A DNA stretch of 46,914 bases, from positions 1-46,914 of IMG/VR virus record IMGVR_UViG_3300004213_000011; one strand, 5' to 3'. Within the stretch, counting starts at the first letter, position 1. Each line of letters starts with the position of its first letter. A program made the position numbers and the translations under genes. Positions 3,710 through 46,914 of the stretch are shown here, in pieces. The notes under the pieces are model-generated. The model saw only the letters and a list, made by a program, of their open reading frames with translations. It ran no database searches and had not been told where the DNA came from. The DNA comes from a virus (Duplodnaviria > Caudoviricetes).

Positions 3710-4360
3710 TTATTCTTGATCTGAATAAATAAATTCTATTCTGGCAGGTTCAGAAAATAAGTTTTGCTGTCTTTGCCATTGTTGAATCCGTTTTTTAGCA
3801 TCTTCGTAATAATCTTTGTCTTTTTCTATACAGGTTATTTCAAAGCCCATATCTAAAGCGGCAATTACGCTACTCATACTACCCCCGTGGCTGTCTAATA
3901 TTTTATCTCCAGGTTGAGCGTAATTTTTAAGTAGCCATTTGTAAAGAGCAACGGGTTTTTGAGTTGGGTGTATCCTGTCTAGTTGGTTTGGTGTTTTCTT
4001 AAATATTTTTGCTGGCTTATCGGGTGTTACCCATGCAAACTCACATTCTGCAAAATCCCGTCCGTACATCGACTCCGCCTTATCCCAAATTACAAAACTC
4101 TTTGATGGGGGCAAATGAAAATAATTGCCACCCCAGATTATTTGATACTTTGAGACCCTAAATAATTCTTGAAAATATTCATCTTTAGGTATGGTATCAT
4201 CCCACTTTTTTTTATCTGGCTTTATAGTTTTCCTTGATCCCATATTCATGTTATTAACTCCAATTCCATAAGGAGGATCACAAATTGCAAGATCGTAACA
4301 CTTATCAGGTAAGGATCGCATATAATCCATACAATCCCCTAAAATTATTTTGTTGCCCAC
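3710..4360 (-). CDS. DNA amino-methyltransferase (N6-A/N4-C, beta class)
   Basis: DPPY catalytic motif, HPTQKP, then the D.H.GS.S SAM-binding motif. Confidence 0.92.
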   Translation of the reverse strand: MGNKIILGDCMDYMRSLPDKCYDLAICDPPYGIGVNNMNMGSRKTIKPDKKKWDDTIPKDEYFQELFRVSKYQIIWGGNYFHLPPSKSFVIWDKAESMYGRDFAECEFAWVTPDKPAKIFKKTPNQLDRIHPTQKPVALYKWLLKNYAQPGDKILDSHGGSMSSVIAALDMGFEITCIEKDKDYYEDAKKRIQQWQRQQNLFSEPARIEFIYSDQE

Positions 4361-5280: not shown

Positions 5281-6066
5281 TTAATTTGCTGCTGCGCTTT
5301 GTTCTTCGCGTTCTTCAATTATTTTTTTTATCTTTTCGGCTACCTTATCTGCTATTTCCTGATCTAATTTGTTTATATTAAGTAACATCTTAGTTTTTTC
5401 CTGGCGAGTTATCACAGGGTTGTTTAATAGCCTTATAAGAGTTTCTTTTTGTTTGGCTGTTGCATACTTAATACTACCATCGTTACCGGCTGGGCCGGTG
5501 ATAACAGGAACGTCTTTTGCGGGTTGTGTTAGGCCTGCCGGTGCATCTGCTTTAGGTGTAAGCCTTTGTCCCGGTACTGTGTCCGGTTTTATTTCCGGCA
5601 TATTGCCCCCGTAATCCATTTCTTCTGCCGGTGTGGCCTCGTAACCTGCTGCCCTTATTAAGTACGCTAGAACGTTACGAAAAGCCTTGCCCACGGCCCT
5701 TGTTTGGGCCATGCTTGCAATAGCAAACTCTTGGTAATACTTCTTTCCCTGCTCTTTATTGCTGCAAACTGCAAACCCGGCTCCGCAAATGATATTAGTA
5801 TCTAAGTTTAATAATTCTACTTTAGCCTGGTACTTTAATTCAGCTTCAGTACCTACATTAACCAGATCTTTTACAACCGGAATTATACCTGCACGGGCAC
5901 CCGCATACTGCCAACCTTCAATGTTTACATATTCTTTGCCCTGAATATTATGGTAAAGTTTGTTTTCTTTAATGAATTTAGCTAGCTCATTAGCTAATAA
6001 TTTCATATCACCTGAATCGGCGATATTATAATTTTGGAGCTTTGCGGGTTGTGTTTTTGCTGCCAT
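5281..6066 (-). CDS. Putative single-strand annealing recombinase
   Basis: KEYVNIEGWQ, SMAQTRAVGKAFR and TPAEEM motifs; C-terminal AT.KQ helix motif. Confidence 0.6.
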   Translation of the reverse strand: MAAKTQPAKLQNYNIADSGDMKLLANELAKFIKENKLYHNIQGKEYVNIEGWQYAGARAGIIPVVKDLVNVGTEAELKYQAKVELLNLDTNIICGAGFAVCSNKEQGKKYYQEFAIASMAQTRAVGKAFRNVLAYLIRAAGYEATPAEEMDYGGNMPEIKPDTVPGQRLTPKADAPAGLTQPAKDVPVITGPAGNDGSIKYATAKQKETLIRLLNNPVITRQEKTKMLLNINKLDQEIADKVAEKIKKIIEEREEQSAAAN

Positions 6067-6067
6067 G

Positions 6068-6889
6068 TTATTGATACATTAAGAAGTATTGTTCTATAAG
6101 TTCTTTGTGATCTCTTAAAAATTGATTGCGTATTTCAGGAGTTTTAAAAGCTAAAAACTGATTTATTAAAATAAAGCTAACCAACTCGATACCGTTTTTA
6201 TAACATCTAATACAATATTTTTCTTCTCCATCTAGCCCCCAATCCGGCACCCAACCCCCATTCACGTGCTTCATTAGCTGGCTTAATTGTGCCATTGCTA
6301 GTGCGCTTTTAGCTTGGTTTTCAGTAACAAATAAGTTCCGAAAGGCAGGAACACTATTAAGATGTGGTTCATATTCCAAACCAGAATACTTAGTTATGCA
6401 ATATCCGGAAATCATACCCAAATCTTCCCACTTTTTAACTCGTGGTTTTAATTCTTCTTCTGTAAAATTAGCGTGTATAAGTTTATCTATTGTGCTGTTC
6501 TGGCCTAATAGGTTTCTTGCTTCTTCTACACTTAATAATATTGGTTTTTTAGTTTCCATTGGCTTTGTTTTGCTTTTTATATAATCGTTTAATATTTTAT
6601 TTATACTCTCTACTGTTCCATTATAATGAGCAGCATGATACAGGATAACCTTAATTCGTTGGTTATCAAAAGAAAAAGCGCGTTTTACATAAGGTAATTT
6701 TAAAATTAGGTAGTATATATCCTCGGATATATAAAAGTTAGCGTTAATACAAAACTCATCCCCATTCAAAGCATATATAGGTTTTATTTCAAACTTGGGT
6801 TTTAACAAGAATATTCCACTTGCATATTCTTGTTCTTCATCATCGTGCATGCTAATTGCGGGCTCTAAAACTGAATGATGTTTACACAT
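6068..6889 (-). CDS. Hypothetical protein (possible two-part fusion; internal start METKK)
   Basis: C-terminal AQL..L....N.GW.PDW...FLAF domain recalled from Bacteroidota phage proteins. Confidence 0.6.
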   Translation of the reverse strand: MCKHHSVLEPAISMHDDEEQEYASGIFLLKPKFEIKPIYALNGDEFCINANFYISEDIYYLILKLPYVKRAFSFDNQRIKVILYHAAHYNGTVESINKILNDYIKSKTKPMETKKPILLSVEEARNLLGQNSTIDKLIHANFTEEELKPRVKKWEDLGMISGYCITKYSGLEYEPHLNSVPAFRNLFVTENQAKSALAMAQLSQLMKHVNGGWVPDWGLDGEEKYCIRCYKNGIELVSFILINQFLAFKTPEIRNQFLRDHKELIEQYFLMYQ

Positions 6890-27904: not shown

Positions 27905-28268
27905 GCTGCAATTTAAAGTTTAATTTAATTTTGAATAAGTCCGTTACAAGGTTTTGGATTTCGTGTACGTAATCCACTTTAACTTTAAATCCATAACTAT
28001 CATCATCCCCCAGGCCACTATGTATAAAAGCAAAGCCATCTTTGTAATTTAAAACACCCTTGTCGGATGTTACGGTTAATGTTCCGTTACTCATTGGGTC
28101 TATTTTATCTGTCCATTCTTTGGTTAAAGGGATACCTCTTATTTCTTTTATTGATATTAATCCAACTTGAAAATCTGTCCATACATAGGAAGGTTGGATA
28201 CCTTCTATTTTGGTATCAGTAATTCCGTAGGTAACTAAATTACCTATTCTTAATTCATTTGCTTTCAT
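27885..28268 (-). CDS. Accessory phage protein (MKANELRIGN type)
   Basis: ELRIGN, IPLT.EW and YVHEIQNL motifs recurrent in Bacteroidota phages. Confidence 0.65.
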   Translation of the reverse strand: MKANELRIGNLVTYGITDTKIEGIQPSYVWTDFQVGLISIKEIRGIPLTKEWTDKIDPMSNGTLTVTSDKGVLNYKDGFAFIHSGLGDDDSYGFKVKVDYVHEIQNLVTDLFKIKLNFKLQHDEQAN

Positions 28269-28639
28269 AGTTGTTCGTTTTTGGGTTTGTGCTTTTCTTT
28301 TAAATATTTAATCCAGTTGTAAAATTCATATACTGTTAAGCTACGGGGGTTACTTACCCCTAAATCTTCTAAAACCACGCATGTCTGCGCAAAAGAGTTT
28401 TCCATTTCTAACATTACGTTTTTACTATCCTCTCCGTTAAAGTTTTTAGGCTTCATTTGGCTTAGTAACCAATCGTTAACTGTTTTTATTTGCTCTTCCA
28501 GTTCGGGGAATTCCGGCTCCGTTATGGTTTTTATTTTAAGCAACGCCCGCCGTACTACCTGGGTATGGAACTCTATTGTTTTATCGTCCTCAATTAATTC
28601 GGGGAAATATAATTCAATTTCACTATTAATTTTTTTTTT
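28265..28639 (-). CDS. Tail assembly chaperone frameshift extension (gpGT-like)
   Basis: The -1 frame is open from the A10 run (INSEIELYFPELIEDD...) into the 92-aa track ORF. Confidence 0.75.
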   Translation of the reverse strand, partial: KKKINSEIELYFPELIEDDKTIEFHTQVVRRALLKIKTITEPEFPELEEQIKTVNDWLLSQMKPKNFNGEDSKNVMLEMENSFAQTCVVLEDLGVSNPRSLTVYEFYNWIKYLKEKHKPKNEQL

Positions 28640-29043
28640 ATTTCCTCCTTTAGTTCGTGGATTTGGTTATAAGTTATGTCTCCGCTCTCTAACTGTTTGG
28701 CTATTGCTAATATATCCGTTTCCGTTACGTCTTGTACCCGCTCTCCGTTTATGCTGTGTACTAAGTGCGCCAGGCATAAACTACCGGTATCAATTCCCTC
28801 CAGCATAAAAAACATTCCCAAACGGAGGTTATGGCGTTCCTGTAAAGCTTCACGTACCCGCCCGGCGGCGTAGAAGGTATCATATTTAGCCAGGCGTACA
28901 TCAATGTCCTCTATTTTGGAACCCATGCCCGCGTCCTGTACTATTGCTATTTGGAAAGCATTAAGTTTCCGTTGTGGCATTTCGTGTATATCGTCGTAGA
29001 AGCTTACGGTTAGGTTATTACGCTGTAGTATTATTTGCCTCAT
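28594..29043 (-). CDS. Tail assembly chaperone (gpG-like)
   Basis: Ends IKKK over an A10 slippery run; upstream of the TMP. Confidence 0.7.
   Translation of the reverse strand: MRQIILQRNNLTVSFYDDIHEMPQRKLNAFQIAIVQDAGMGSKIEDIDVRLAKYDTFYAAGRVREALQERHNLRLGMFFMLEGIDTGSLCLAHLVHSINGERVQDVTETDILAIAKQLESGDITYNQIHELKEEIKKKLIVKLNYISPN
28630..28639 (-). other. Programmed -1 ribosomal frameshift site (A10)
   Basis: ATA AAA AAA AAA TTA; a -1 slip joins the two ORFs. Confidence 0.75.
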
Positions 29044-39156: not shown

Positions 39157-40900
39157 AACTTAATAAAGTTTTAGTGATTAAATCTATTTTAGTGTTAAAT
39201 TCCATTTTTATGCCAAACCGCAAAACATCTAACTGTTCAGCTTCAAAACGTTTAATATACGTATCAAAGTTTAATTTAAGTACGTAAAGTTCATGATTTA
39301 TTGTGCCAGGCATTGCCGCCTCTATTTCGGATAATTCTTTAAGGCTTTGATCTGGGTACGGCTCCAAGTGCGCTAGTATGTTTAACCGTTGCACCATTTC
39401 AGGATTATTTTTATATTTAGTGTGGTAAAGCGTTTTTAAAGATTCGGCTAAATGATAAGCAGGCATTCCGGCCTCTTTATCTTTTTGGTAACGTTCACTT
39501 AGTTCTTGTTCATCTATTAAATAGAATTCGTCCCCCATTATTACGGTGCTATCCACAAAACTAGCTCCGTAACGTAAAATAGCAACTGTTTCAAGACCCC
39601 ATTTTCTTGCACGTTCCACACATCCTTTTATCAATAAAAAAACGTTTTCTTTGCTAGTCAGGCCACTTTCTATCTGCTTTTCGTTTTTGGCCTGGTCGTT
39701 TACCGGCTCGCCTCCTTTGCCTACTACGCTAACAAAGAGCTTATCATATTTTTGCTCAAGGCGTTCCTGTGCATTTTTTAGGGCTGCAATATCTATTGTT
39801 ATTAACCCGGCTGGCTCCCTTAAATCAGCATCCGTATTGTCAACCGGGGCTTCTATTTGCTTAACACTACCAGGGCCGATATAATTATTTTTAGAACATT
39901 TAGGGCAAGGTTTTTTGTCTAACAATGCAGCCTTTTGGCCGGTTACTGATTCACTGTAGCCGGCAATATATCCTTTTTCGCATTTTGCGCCCTGGCCATC
40001 AGTATAATCACAGGCTTCATCATTCATGTACTCCCAATAAATAGGGTACGATCCGAAACTTTCAAAATATTCAGTACTTAAATCCCAAAAGAAAAGGTCG
40101 TCAAGTTTTCCAAGTTTGGCAGTTAACGGCCCTTTACGCTGTAGCAATTCTGGGCGACTCTGGGGTATATCCCAAAATACGCGGGCCGGGCAATAACCTA
40201 AACCAGATATTTTTTCGCCTGTTTCGGCGTAAAAAGAGTGTCGGGTTTCCACTGGAACGACTAACCGCCAATCATCCTCGCGGCGGTTACGAGTGTATTT
40301 TCTGTAATACGTATCATCAAATACGTATCTTACTAAATCGCCTTCATTAAAAATAACATAATCTATTTTACCTTCATAAGTTAATTCTACATCCCAAAGC
40401 AATTCAGGCTCCAGAAAATACATATACGGTTCCGGCAAATCGTTTTTTTGTTGGGCGGGCAGGTCTATGATTAATAGATTATTGATAGCGGTTTTGATAA
40501 CCTCAAACCCGGCGTTTTTAAAGAAGTTTTCTTCTTTTAAAACATCCGTTCTGTAAATATTAAAATCTTCATCGTAAGCATCATTAAGAAACTCAAATCT
40601 AGTAAATCCGTTTTCCCCCTCTAGTGCACGGCTCAACTCATTAAAAATACTTTCTGTTAAGTCTACAGTAGGGAGGGGAAACGTGATTAGTTTTGTTACT
40701 TGGTCATACTTTTCTTTAGGTAAAAAACCAGCAATCCACTTTAGCAAATCAGTGTAAGCCGGGCTTACCTCCGTTGCATCTAAAGCGGGTTCTACGTGCA
40801 ATCTAATCCTCTGATGCTGCTTGATGCACCTCTGGATCATTGCCTGATTTTTTGGTTTTTCGAACAGTTGTTGTATCTGCTCCCTTGACAAGTTTGCCAT
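38978..40900 (-). CDS. Portal protein (start revised to MANLSR)
   Basis: 640 aa, helical, between terminase and scaffold; HGLGYCP-like SGLGYCPA motif; Cys4 insertion. Confidence 0.75.
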   Translation of the reverse strand: MANLSREQIQQLFEKPKNQAMIQRCIKQHQRIRLHVEPALDATEVSPAYTDLLKWIAGFLPKEKYDQVTKLITFPLPTVDLTESIFNELSRALEGENGFTRFEFLNDAYDEDFNIYRTDVLKEENFFKNAGFEVIKTAINNLLIIDLPAQQKNDLPEPYMYFLEPELLWDVELTYEGKIDYVIFNEGDLVRYVFDDTYYRKYTRNRREDDWRLVVPVETRHSFYAETGEKISGLGYCPARVFWDIPQSRPELLQRKGPLTAKLGKLDDLFFWDLSTEYFESFGSYPIYWEYMNDEACDYTDGQGAKCEKGYIAGYSESVTGQKAALLDKKPCPKCSKNNYIGPGSVKQIEAPVDNTDADLREPAGLITIDIAALKNAQERLEQKYDKLFVSVVGKGGEPVNDQAKNEKQIESGLTSKENVFLLIKGCVERARKWGLETVAILRYGASFVDSTVIMGDEFYLIDEQELSERYQKDKEAGMPAYHLAESLKTLYHTKYKNNPEMVQRLNILAHLEPYPDQSLKELSEIEAAMPGTINHELYVLKLNFDTYIKRFEAEQLDVLRFGIKMEFNTKIDLITKTLLSYVNTDREKTSAQLDIRRAKQTPEPANGNGNGNVRGEQSGGSSAGTRTASNPRQYANEGI

Positions 40901-41758: not shown

Positions 41759-43249
41759 TTAATTGCGATTAATTATTTTTTTCTTATCTTTCCCGAAATA
41801 AAATTCAAGAAGCTGCATTACAAATATATCTACTTCGTCATCATGCGTACTGTTCGGGAATGCTGAACATTGATTTTTAAACGTTGTCGTCCAGCCGGAG
41901 CCATCTTCAATAAGTACTACCCGGCCTACCTGGATAATATCCGTTATTGCGTGGGCGCGTACTATTTTATCTTTATCGTCCATCCTTACACCCCGTACCC
42001 GTGGAAACTTGTATTGCTCGACGTTTACCGTTGTAGCCTTTTTTATAGATTGCACTACACTAAGGCCCGAGGCCTTTGGTTCAATTCTAATGTAACTTTT
42101 TAGGCCGTACCCGTTGGCCTGGGCAAATTCATCTATATATTCGCAAAGTGCTGGCAGTTCTTTTCGTACAGATTGCACCCGGCGTATATAGGTTATGTTA
42201 TCAACTAAGCAAGCCGACAATATTGCGGAGGGATCGTTTTGCGTTTTCTCTGTATAAGCTGTATCCACTTTGAACTGCCATATTACCTCCCGGTTTTTTG
42301 TTCTATCTAAAAACTCTGGCCAGGTGATTAAACCGAATTTTTCAGTTTTTATAATATTACCCTCTAATGGGCGCGGGTTTTGTTGGTATAAGCTGTTATA
42401 AGTCCGGGGGCTGCTTTCCTTTTGTTCTAATATTGTTTCTTTGCTGTGTTGCTCTTCCCATAGTGCTTCCCCTATTTGCCTGGGGTCGTTAGGGTTATTG
42501 TTATTTTCTTTTATTGCAGGTAAGCTTATAACCGTCCATTTCCTGGGCAAACCTTTTAACGCACGGGCATCGTCCTCTTTTAACAAGCGGCCCGCTAAAT
42601 CGTCTTCGTGCCAACGGGTTTGGAGGAGTAATTGTTGAGAGCCGTTATGGAGTCGGGTTTTGAATACGTCCGTATACCAAGCCCAGACATTCCGGCGTAT
42701 AATTTCGCTTTCTGCCTCTATCCTATCCTTAAAGGGGTCATCAATTATCCCTAAGTCTACAGACGTTCCAGTAAGCGGCCCCCGAACGTAAGCGGCTTTG
42801 AAAAAACCCCGGTGCCCGACAATTTCAAATACTTCACTATTCCGTAAAGTTGCCCCCTTTGCATCAGAGGCGACGTTTTTCCCGTTTAGTTTTGTATCCG
42901 GGAAAACAGAAGCGTAAGTACTAGTGTCTATTATTCTTTGTGCATCGCGGTTGAATCCGAAACTTAAATCCCCGCTATAACTACAAACAGCGATTCTGCA
43001 ATTGGGGTCTAAGCCTAGCTTGTAGGCCGGGAACTGGCGGCTACTTAATTCACTTTTCCCGTGCTGTGGAGGCACGAATATCATTAAATTGGTTATCTCC
43101 CTACGTGCAAACTTATCCAGTACCTCGCATATATATCTATGGTGCCAGTTAACACGGTAATCCGGTTTGTTGTGCAAAACAAAACGCAAAAATTTACGCT
43201 TAGCTAAGTTGTTTTGTACAGAAGAAAGGCGGGGTGCTTCTAAAACCAT
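41759..43249 (-). CDS. terL: Terminase large subunit (start revised to MVLEAP)
   Basis: Walker A PPQHGKS, Walker B GIIDDP, QTRWHEDDLAG, LYQQNP, VDTA, IEPKASG, FPN..HDDEVD. Confidence 0.95.
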   Translation of the reverse strand: MVLEAPRLSSVQNNLAKRKFLRFVLHNKPDYRVNWHHRYICEVLDKFARREITNLMIFVPPQHGKSELSSRQFPAYKLGLDPNCRIAVCSYSGDLSFGFNRDAQRIIDTSTYASVFPDTKLNGKNVASDAKGATLRNSEVFEIVGHRGFFKAAYVRGPLTGTSVDLGIIDDPFKDRIEAESEIIRRNVWAWYTDVFKTRLHNGSQQLLLQTRWHEDDLAGRLLKEDDARALKGLPRKWTVISLPAIKENNNNPNDPRQIGEALWEEQHSKETILEQKESSPRTYNSLYQQNPRPLEGNIIKTEKFGLITWPEFLDRTKNREVIWQFKVDTAYTEKTQNDPSAILSACLVDNITYIRRVQSVRKELPALCEYIDEFAQANGYGLKSYIRIEPKASGLSVVQSIKKATTVNVEQYKFPRVRGVRMDDKDKIVRAHAITDIIQVGRVVLIEDGSGWTTTFKNQCSAFPNSTHDDEVDIFVMQLLEFYFGKDKKKIINRN

Positions 43250-43253
43250 GCTG

Positions 43254-43263
43254 CTAATATACG
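43254..43263 (-). promoter_or_regulatory. Variant promoter core CGTATATTAG just upstream of terL
   Basis: Identical to 41737-41746; 4 nt from the ATG. Confidence 0.5.
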
Positions 43264-43274
43264 AAATAAAACGC

Positions 43275-43301
43275 AAAAAGGCCACCCGGTTAAAGGTGGC
43301 C
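43275..43301 (-). terminator. Intrinsic terminator closing the ncRNA unit
   Basis: GGCCACC-TTTAACCG-GGTGGCC followed by T5. Confidence 0.85.
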
Positions 43302-43652
43302 TTACTCATTTGAGAAACCGGGCAACTCATTTATATATCTTATATCACCGGTTTTAACACCAATTCGGGGTGTCGCCTGTCTTTTTAGCTTTAGTAGCTA
43401 TCTCTAAAACTAAAAAGCTTTTTCAGCGGGGAGACAGCTTTGCAGCTTACACATTTAACTTAACGTTAGCTATTCGTCAAATTAAATGCTTCTGTTTTCA
43501 CGCCTCCCCTATCGGGGTTTGTTGTGGAGTGTTTGGATCGAACCCAGGCGCCTTTTACACAGCCCACCCCATTTAACTTGTAAGTCCTATAATTAACGAC
43601 CTTTAGGTATTAGTAGCACGGAACGGTCATGCGGCCTACTTACAAGCTTGTT
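43275..43652 (-). ncRNA. Putative ~375-nt structured non-coding RNA
   Basis: No credible minus-strand ORF; own promoter and terminator; 9-, 15- and 14-bp stems with G-U pairs valid only on the minus strand; T-loop-like GGTTCGAT. Confidence 0.7.
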
Positions 43653-43656
43653 TTAA

Positions 43657-43670
43657 CAAATATACGTAAA
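43657..43670 (-). promoter_or_regulatory. Promoter of the ncRNA (TTTACGTATATTTG)
   Basis: Variant of the repeat core containing TATATTTG. Confidence 0.7.
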
Positions 43671-43697
43671 TAAAATAAAAAGTATACTTGTTTTGGT

Positions 43698-43724
43698 AAA
43701 AAAGCCACCTGGTTAAAAGTGGCC
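43698..43724 (-). terminator. Intrinsic terminator upstream of the ncRNA promoter
   Basis: GGCCACTT-TTAACC-AGGTGGCT followed by a T tract. Confidence 0.8.
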
Positions 43725-43749: not shown

Positions 43750-44037
43750 TTAATTTTTACTAAAGCTGTTTTTAACATTTTCTTCTCGTATCTTTTCAGA
43801 AGCAAAAGTAAGTAATTCTTCTTTCAAGCCATCCAGCGCTATCATACCCAAAAAATCTGGTAACCCTGGAATAAAGATAGTCATTGTTAAAAACATTTCA
43901 GTAGCTCCGCTATAAAAACAAGTTTTAATTTCTTCTTGCTTATCAGCTGGCATGTTTTTATAATCTTCATAATTTGCATCAATGAATTTTTGGAACATTG
44001 ATTGCATAAATAAAACTTCTTTGTTGTTGTCGTCCAT
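43750..44037 (-). CDS. Hypothetical phage protein
   Basis: Q.EE....FYSGA motif. Confidence 0.6.
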   Translation of the reverse strand: MDDNNKEVLFMQSMFQKFIDANYEDYKNMPADKQEEIKTCFYSGATEMFLTMTIFIPGLPDFLGMIALDGLKEELLTFASEKIREENVKNSFSKN

Positions 44038-46765: not shown

Positions 46766-46853
46766 CGGCAAGGCCGGGACTCGAACCCGAATATTTAGAG
46801 TGGTAGTTTAATTCCCAGTAGCCCTTTGCGTCTGCCAGTTCCGCCACCTTGCC
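46766..46853 (-). tRNA. Atypical tRNA (Leu-type D arm, possible UAA anticodon, non-canonical anticodon arm)
   Basis: GGCAAGG/CCTTGCC acceptor stem, TGGCGGAACTGGCAGACGC D arm, GGGTTCGAGTCCC T arm; no encoded CCA. Confidence 0.75.
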
Positions 46854-46914
46854 TGTTTAAGGCACTAACGCGGCCTTAATTTACGTCTCATTATACCGAC
46901 TTGGGCCGGGTATT

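Follow-up and report, generated by a model that had tools for sequence, protein, structure and literature searches.

A phage genome recovered from metagenome data carries, directly upstream of the gene for the large terminase subunit (terL), some 375 bases in which a first-pass annotation had found no credible ORF and which it had read as a stand-alone structured RNA in the place normally held by the small subunit gene, terS. This raises two questions, namely whether the stretch forms an RNA unit of its own and whether such an RNA would have anything to do with the terminase.

Organization of the region upstream of terL

The window (the whole stretch of DNA analysed, 46,914 bases) is a tailed-phage genome with almost every gene on the minus strand. 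Among named phages, its TerL is closest to those of Flavobacterium phages 1/32 (44%) and tant8-1 (38%), and a more distant TerL relative is Bacteroides phage B40-8, with which it has in common the order terL, small structural gene, portal. The record is of the linear class with a CheckV completeness of 88%, and a 54,612-bp metagenome contig (L361), identical to the window across the 6,046 bases compared, extends by its coordinates approximately 7.0 kb past the high end of the window and 0.7 kb past the low end. The window covers 46.9 of these 54.6 kb, and approximately 7.7 kb of the contig are absent from it. Since the cassette region lies inside one contig of metagenome run X1, possibly the run of origin, it is not an assembly join. 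Ahead of several gene clusters of the phage there is a repeated TTATTTGCGTATATTTG motif, which we take to fit the -7 element of Bacteroidota promoters. The features of the locus, in the order in which the minus strand is read, are as follows:

43698..43724, minus: intrinsic-terminator-like hairpin that closes the preceding gene cluster
43657..43673, minus: promoter motif of Bacteroidota type, TTATTTACG-TATATTTG
43275..43652, minus: predicted stand-alone non-coding RNA, approximately 375 nt including its terminator, proposed from the folding z-score, with the 5' end placed by the promoter motif
43275..43303, minus: intrinsic-terminator-like hairpin at the end of the cassette
43254..43261, minus: promoter-like TATATTAG, four bases upstream of the ATG of terL
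41759..43249, minus: terL, the neighbouring gene outside the RNA (phrog_38, E 3e-92; Pfam Terminase_6N and Terminase_6C)

A total of 500 bases separate a 95-aa ORF (ending at 43750) from the terL ATG (43249), and along them the order is terminator, promoter motif, approximately 350 non-coding bases, second terminator, TATATTAG and terL. The succession of terminator, promoter, ORF-free stretch, terminator and terL had been described in the first-pass annotation, and it was confirmed by a terminator scan, by reading of the sequence and by the ORF list; the scan itself reported only the hairpin at 43303-43275, that at 43724-43698 having been read from the sequence. The only cassette ORF of at least 45 aa is a 68-aa frame on the plus strand, for which no Pfam match was obtained. 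The TATATTTG half of the promoter motif (43664-43657) is a variant of the TTATTTGCGTATATTTG motif of the phage and presumably a -7 element by the Bacteroidota consensus; the cassette copy is without the TTTG found upstream of the other copies. Terminator and promoter block are repeated on either side of the cassette, the upstream terminator being identical to 43301-43275 in 24 of 27 bases and the promoter block in 17 of 23 (74% over 23 nt).

The promoter-like TATATTAG is found in the same arrangement in the closest readable relative, G001 (L007:3985-4001), and its proximity to the ATG in both phages, at a distance of four to five bases, suggests that the terL mRNA may be leaderless. An N-terminal extension of TerL from an ATG at 43330 was rejected, given that it would cross the terminator and that TerL of G001 starts at the equivalent of 43249.

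Some features elsewhere in the window were also noted. Two DNA methyltransferases, of the C5-cytosine and N6/N4 types, are encoded at 789-1862 and 3710-4360 (both minus). GATC, CTAG and CGCG are depleted in the genome and AGCT is not (O/E 0.96), on which ground AGCT was rejected as a restriction-site decoy. At 28265-29043 (minus) two adjoining ORFs correspond to the two halves of PHROG 8914, as they do in G001; this pair may presumably undergo the programmed frameshift typical of tail assembly chaperones.

A relative without the RNA and the location of terS

G001 (CheckV 99%) is colinear with the window, and its TerL is 70% identical. In this genome homologues of both ORFs upstream of the cassette are followed by a terminator, orthologous to the one at the end of the cassette, a promoter motif and terL, all within 105 bases, and the terminator-promoter block before terL is present in a single copy. 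The RNA was detected nowhere in the G001 genome, either by BLAST or by a single-sequence covariance model, and because terminator, promoter and terL follow one another directly in this phage, the RNA is accessory. The blocks on either side of the cassette have the anatomy of a unit that may have been gained or lost by recombination, one relative giving no direction.

Importantly for the terminase, G001 encodes a TerS (L233:5313-5867; phrog_309, E 5e-32, and five weaker TerS families) located 5.5 kb upstream of terL (L233 11349-12839), with small genes and an RNA cluster in between. This gene lies inside approximately 8 kb that are almost without counterpart in the window and that correspond to the 7.7 kb missing from it. 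In addition, a TerS (P0122, 66% identical to that of G001) and a TerL (P0008, 69% identical to that of the phage) are both found on 41,554-bp contigs, and on this basis we regard them as one second member of the clade. The clade members P0002-P0006, P0008 and P0009 have TerL identities of 65-72%. In this clade terS and terL are several kilobases apart. This differs from most relatives, in which a TerS-like ORF abuts terL: of 211 fetched TerL loci, 167 were distinct and reached 700 bases or more upstream, and 98 of their upstream ORFs grouped into a single cluster, to which the annotated TerS of phage 1/32 belongs. Given the G001 layout, with the same flanking genes, neither RNA nor terS between them and terS elsewhere, the position of the cassette is not a vacated terS slot, and the earlier proposal that the RNA sits in the place of terS is not supported. 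As a separate observation, the distant TerL loci L018, L020, L023, L025, L034, L039, L042, L044, L048 and L049 and related ones have at least 600 bases upstream of terL without a plus-strand ORF of 50 aa.

The first-pass annotation had also stated that no TerS is recognisable anywhere. This holds in the window, where none of the 62 ORFs matches a TerS family in PHROGs and the best match of a TerS profile to the six window frames has an E value of 0.21, but part of the genome lies outside the window. Two protein searches did not show a TerS of this phage among the matches listed (38 in one, the best 120 in the other), and contigs of runs X1 and X2 did not cover the G001 terS at 80% likeness, a gap in coverage that is no evidence in either direction; since this terS was not seen directly, we infer its presence from the relatives. 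Terminase biology is not overturned by this locus, and the separation of terS from terL cautions against calling TerS missing in partial genomes.

The idea that the RNA acts in packaging, replacing TerS or ringing the portal as the pRNA of phi29 does, drew on its position next to terL and on the lack of a visible TerS. The comparison with G001, which has the same TerL family and a TerS and does without the RNA, speaks against it, as do the second clade member, with its own TerS, and the match between the region holding terS in G001 and the one absent from the window. Moreover, TerL of the phage has both the ATPase and the nuclease domain of a terminase, in which it differs from the phi29 motor. 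For phi29 pRNA there was no Rfam match at the gathering score or at E<=10, and the RNA is not kept in the relative. What the two do have in common is that each is a phage non-coding RNA with two complementary loops by which protomers could be linked, so that molecules could join hand in hand (PMC7357161, in the part covered), but in the cassette the loops are identical palindromes and not a left/right pair, and packaging is of the terminase type. A packaging role is accordingly very improbable.

Folding of the cassette and its tRNA-like piece

Folding of the cassette is strand-specific. The minus strand gave a z-score of -4.29, with none of 100 shuffles equally stable, against -2.68 for the plus strand (3 of 100 shuffles), and the minus-strand value was -3.45 when the terminator was left out. 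Among 52 tiled windows along the genome, with 15 shuffles each, one other, a coding window at 40501, tied with the cassette. The signal is carried by the D3-D4 stretch (43378-43512; z -6.34 on the minus strand, -2.02 on the plus strand). Treated as single-stranded DNA, the minus strand of this stretch likewise folds well (z -4.62). The predicted domains, all on the minus strand, are the following:

43577..43646, minus: D1, a 70-nt stem-loop with a perfect 9-bp closing helix (z -1.69 alone)
43524..43571, minus: D2, a degenerate tRNA-like minidomain, from the fold and pair listing (z -0.82 alone)
43428..43509, minus: D3, a three-way junction of P1, H3 and a 4-bp hairpin (z -5.69 minus, -2.02 plus)
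within 43428..43509, minus: P1, the 8-bp closing helix of D3, GGGGAGGC/GUCUCCCC, from the pair listing
43451..43489, minus: H3, a 15-bp hairpin with 3 G-U pairs and a 9-nt loop, AA-UAGCUA-A (43474-43466) = AAUAGCUAA, from the pair listing
43447-43436, minus: 4-bp hairpin with a GCAA tetraloop in D3, from the pair listing
43381..43417, minus: H4 (D4), a 14-bp hairpin with 1 U-G pair and a 9-nt loop, AGA-UAGCUA (43403-43395) = AGAUAGCUA (z -4.04)
43305..43377, minus: D5, small hairpins GACACC/GGUGUU and ACCGG/CCGGU, of chance-level stability (z -0.90)

Three of these five domains (D1, D2 and D5) are not significantly structured alone, and the inner fold of D1 is ambiguous, with several near-equal alternatives. 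The earlier reading as a stand-alone structured non-coding unit draws support from the anatomy and the strand-specific folding, with the folding signal confined to 43378-43512. The helices proposed at that time can all be formed, although the ATGACC/GGTCGT helix and the CCCC-GATA-GGGG hairpin are absent from the minimum-energy fold. Consistent with the statement that the G-U pairs work only on the transcribed strand, P1, H3 and H4 together comprise 37 pairs without a mismatch, and all five positions that are not Watson-Crick are G-U on the minus strand, a count that is supportive and not decisive because the helices were chosen with G-U allowed.

What had escaped the first-pass annotation is that two long hairpins carry the same self-complementary loop. 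UAGCUA, present in both loops, is its own reverse complement, and of the three minus-strand occurrences in the window of the longer AUAGCUA, common to both, two are in the loops of H3 and H4. When the stems are aligned from the outside, 8 of 14 pairs are identical, including the U-G at the same place, and the other six are changed on both sides, none on one side only (permutation P ~0.01, post hoc). As plain sequence the two are identical at 15 of 20 positions, a likeness matched by 166 of 1000 shuffles and therefore unremarkable, so that the paralogy of H3 and H4 rests on the post hoc pair-level test together with the loop. On this evidence H4 is likely to be a paralogue of H3. In 3.6 million bases of fetched loci, searched on both strands, there was no other adjacent pair of hairpins of at least 12 bp with complementary loops; the scan counted seven adjacent pairings, four of which were H3/H4 in alternative registers.

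D2 consists of an acceptor-like stem (7 bp, one of them G-U), a short arm and a T-loop-like GGTTCGATCC / GGUUCGAUCC, with the T stem broken and one base missing; it encodes no CCA. ARAGORN found no tRNA or tmRNA at default settings, and none in 43275-43652 at a relaxed threshold. A tRNA or tmRNA in one or two pieces was rejected on this result and on the broken T stem, and a permuted tmRNA because GGGGAG does not pair with the CACUCC strand and there is no tag ORF. An alanine identity (G3-U70) was also rejected, the wobble of D2 being at 4-69 in the standard 7-bp register. A loose pattern of the 3' half of D2 was found at 118 viral loci, 83 of them distinct, and 18 of the 83 had a matching 5' acceptor strand within 60 bases where 3.7 were expected; these 18 loci are not independent and at least one resembles an ordinary tRNA. 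Rfam searches of 20 of the 118 loci gave matches to neighbouring tRNAs and none to the element.

Its acceptor-like stem, short arm, T-loop and 3' end give D2 the look of a degenerate representative of a wider group of phage minidomains, most of which have a 5-bp T stem where that of D2 is broken. D1, D3 and D4 were not found in members of this class (BLAST best E 0.046 over 26 nt), and alignments of the class are poor at the 5' end. The class itself (GGRGUG, short arms, T arm, CACYCC-AC) is found between genes or near tRNAs, often with a small G+C hairpin on its 5' side, and includes the loci L242, L248, L249, L255, L258, L261, L268, L300, L310, L329 and L340. We know of no name for these GGRGUG...CACYCC-AC minidomains.

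Homologues of the cassette were searched for at several levels. Rfam, which the first-pass annotation had named as a check on novelty, returned no match at the gathering score and, at E<=10, nothing beyond noise of the terminator or miRNA type, so that no known family is represented. By this search RNase P, group I and II introns, ribozymes and riboswitches were set aside, as were the skipping-rope and DUF3800 motifs (PMC5737381, in part). With blastn the best match to phages had an E value of 2 and plasmids gave none; blastn and nhmmer gave no homologue in 163 TerL loci, nor did a DNA search of 5 genomes. Five motif scans of viral contigs (69, 6, 118, 5 and 76 matches or loci) also gave none: the 69 were mostly ordinary tRNAs, the 6 arose by chance, and in the 76-locus scan none of 60 distinct loci had both loops closed by stems of more than 4 bp. 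The covariance model built from the D3-D4 sequence alone found nothing in 100 of the 211 TerL loci, 84 pattern loci and 151 Bacteroidota genomes, and the hairpin pattern was found in none of 401 Bacteroidota genomes. A strict scan of metagenome contigs gave two matches, one by chance and one an identical copy (L361); the only copies found are identical ones, on L361 and on a 159-nt contig in run X2. Because searches of this kind depend on nearly exact word matches or on a single sequence, distant homologues can be missed.

The element is not described in the literature searched, as far as the parts covered extend. A survey of viral RNAs lists 10,006 candidates and reports structured RNAs upstream of terminase genes (PMC10690425, in part); these candidates may include the cassette or the tRNA-like minidomains.

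Possible roles of the RNA and neighbouring RNA features

Taken together, the cassette is a real, bounded, orphan structured unit with one unusual feature, likely an accessory phage small RNA and not a substitute for terS. That this stand-alone RNA is a real transcript under selection we consider probable. If transcribed, it would be a short, cleanly bounded and dispensable RNA with two long hairpins bearing the same palindromic loop, which makes it directly testable; to our knowledge few phage non-coding RNAs have a known job.

As to its function, we tentatively favour, at clearly less than an even chance, a decoy with two sites for a host protein. We postulate that the cassette was gained by recombination at the duplicated terminator-promoter blocks and is transcribed on its own into a small RNA that would act in trans, with H3 and H4 each occupied by a single molecule of a host protein, for which a defence nuclease or a toxin is the likely candidate; D2 could serve in processing or as a stability handle, or be a remnant, and the RNA may in addition self-pair through its palindromic loops. 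We read the two similar stems, with their fixed wobble and shared loop, as having the look of a protein-binding repeat. There are precedents for such an arrangement: a structural model of the abiF antitoxin RCd22 (RF03085) assigns its two stem-loop motifs, 33 and 35 nt long, to the two monomers of a dimeric toxin (PMC12373285, in part), and phage phiTE carries repeated antitoxin mimics, pseudo-ToxI, against a host toxin (PMC3594212, in part). The cassette resembles the former as a predicted small RNA, bounded by promoter motif and terminator, with two stem-loops of approximately 35 nt that may be repeats of one unit, and the latter as a phage-borne RNA with such possible repeats. It differs from abiF and type III antitoxins in matching no Rfam family and in having terL downstream and not a toxin gene, and its units are 72 nt apart, forming neither a tandem array nor a pseudoknot repeat. 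The absence of a toxin gene downstream does not exclude an antitoxin mimic. We count in favour of the decoy the ORF-free stretch bounded by a promoter motif and two terminators, the absence from G001, the duplicated flanks, the strand-specific folding of D3-D4 and the likeness of H3 and H4; against it we count the lack of homologues beyond identical copies and of matches to Rfam antitoxin or decoy families, the hairpin pattern in none of 401 Bacteroidota genomes, the three unstructured domains, the folding of the same stretch as single-stranded DNA and the promoter motif without TTTG.

The same loops give the scaffold and anti-defence ideas of the first-pass annotation a concrete basis. UAGCUA palindromes could pair between molecules, or with each other, and build dimers, chains, rings or a small scaffold without protein. 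The H3 loop, an exposed six-base palindrome flanked by two purines and one A, is like the dimerisation site of HIV-1, with its six-base palindrome and conserved flanking purines (PMC7357161, in part), although the palindrome of the cassette is A/U-rich (duplex -5.1 kcal/mol). AGCU, which alternates with GGCC and GAUC in the symmetric kissing loop L9.3 of OLE RNA, is an attested core there and present in the cassette loops (PMC12286853, in part). Two independent 9-nt loops would have one palindromic hexamer in common with P ~8e-5, but if H3 and H4 are duplicates there is only one palindrome to explain (P ~0.06), and kissing alone needs no similar stem sequences. Similarly, AGCU is present seven times in 351 nt, a number reached by none of 5000 shuffles, yet a coding stretch near 6000-6330 of the same genome has eight AGCT in 351 nt. 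The H4 version is less clean, its palindrome abutting the stem and the minimum-energy fold closing two further pairs in the loop. We give self-assembly a low probability, and it is equally unlikely that an RNA of approximately 350 nt polymerises via these loops into rings or chains as a miniature counterpart of the ROOL and GOLLD cages, swapped as a cassette and trapping a defence protein of the host in a multivalent manner. ROOL and GOLLD are likewise phage-borne and located near tRNAs (PMC5737381, PMC12286853, both in part); membership of the ROOL, GOLLD or OLE families was rejected on size (350-375 nt against 600 to >800 nt) and for want of an Rfam match. A decaying relic is given a similarly low probability; in this view the stretch would have no present function and combine a tRNA-like element in decay with old hairpins, the remains of a gene or mobile cassette since lost. 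It would account for the broken T stem of D2, for the three unstructured domains, for the empty homologue searches and for another odd tRNA-like gene of the phage (46853-46766), but it fits poorly with an intact promoter motif and terminator and with 37 mismatch-free pairs whose five G-U all fall on one strand, the chance of which we estimate at approximately 1 in 32 if transitions are random. Quite unlikely, finally, is an element acting in cis or as DNA, either an insulator or attenuator tuning terL or a hairpin pair read as single-stranded DNA or as protein-binding sites. The location directly upstream of terL, the folding of the same strand as DNA and the structured RNAs upstream of terminase genes in the viral survey (PMC10690425, in part) are compatible with it, whereas terL has a promoter-like motif of its own after the terminator, as in the cassette-free G001, and wobble pairs suit a folded strand better than a double-stranded dyad.

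Two further systems invite comparison with the accessory RNA. The cabRNA of staphylococcal phages, a structured RNA of approximately 400 nt that triggers host defence, is similar in size, structure and terminase locus, but it lies inside the terS-terL coding sequence, whereas the cassette is located between genes and has a promoter motif and a terminator of its own (PMC10686824, in part). YrlA Y RNA has a GNCGAAN0-1G motif near the 5' end, T and D arms and a Ro60 gene within 4 kb (PMC4201824, in part); it was rejected, as there was no Rfam match, no Ro60-like match in the 62 ORFs (PHROGs) and no such 5' motif seen on reading the sequence.

The odd tRNA-like gene mentioned above (46766-46853, minus) is of class II, scores 38 bits against the Rfam tRNA model, is without a clean anticodon arm or encoded CCA, and was not called by ARAGORN at default settings. 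Just 5' of it, at 46855-46914 (minus), there is by eye a pseudoknot-like leader, GACGT/GCGTT with TTAAGGC/GCCTTAA, and a contig of run X2 has 46856-46914 without a difference followed by a different tRNA-like sequence, which suggests a conserved element acting as a tRNA leader or in processing. The G001 counterpart of this end of the window is a 460-nt non-coding stretch (L233:6545-7005) without an Rfam match and with a z-score of -1.48. It combines a leader motif like the one above with a long closed domain on the 5' side and a 3' end bearing a T-loop and an acceptor-like sequence. The clade seems to have a second RNA cluster, cut off by the window.
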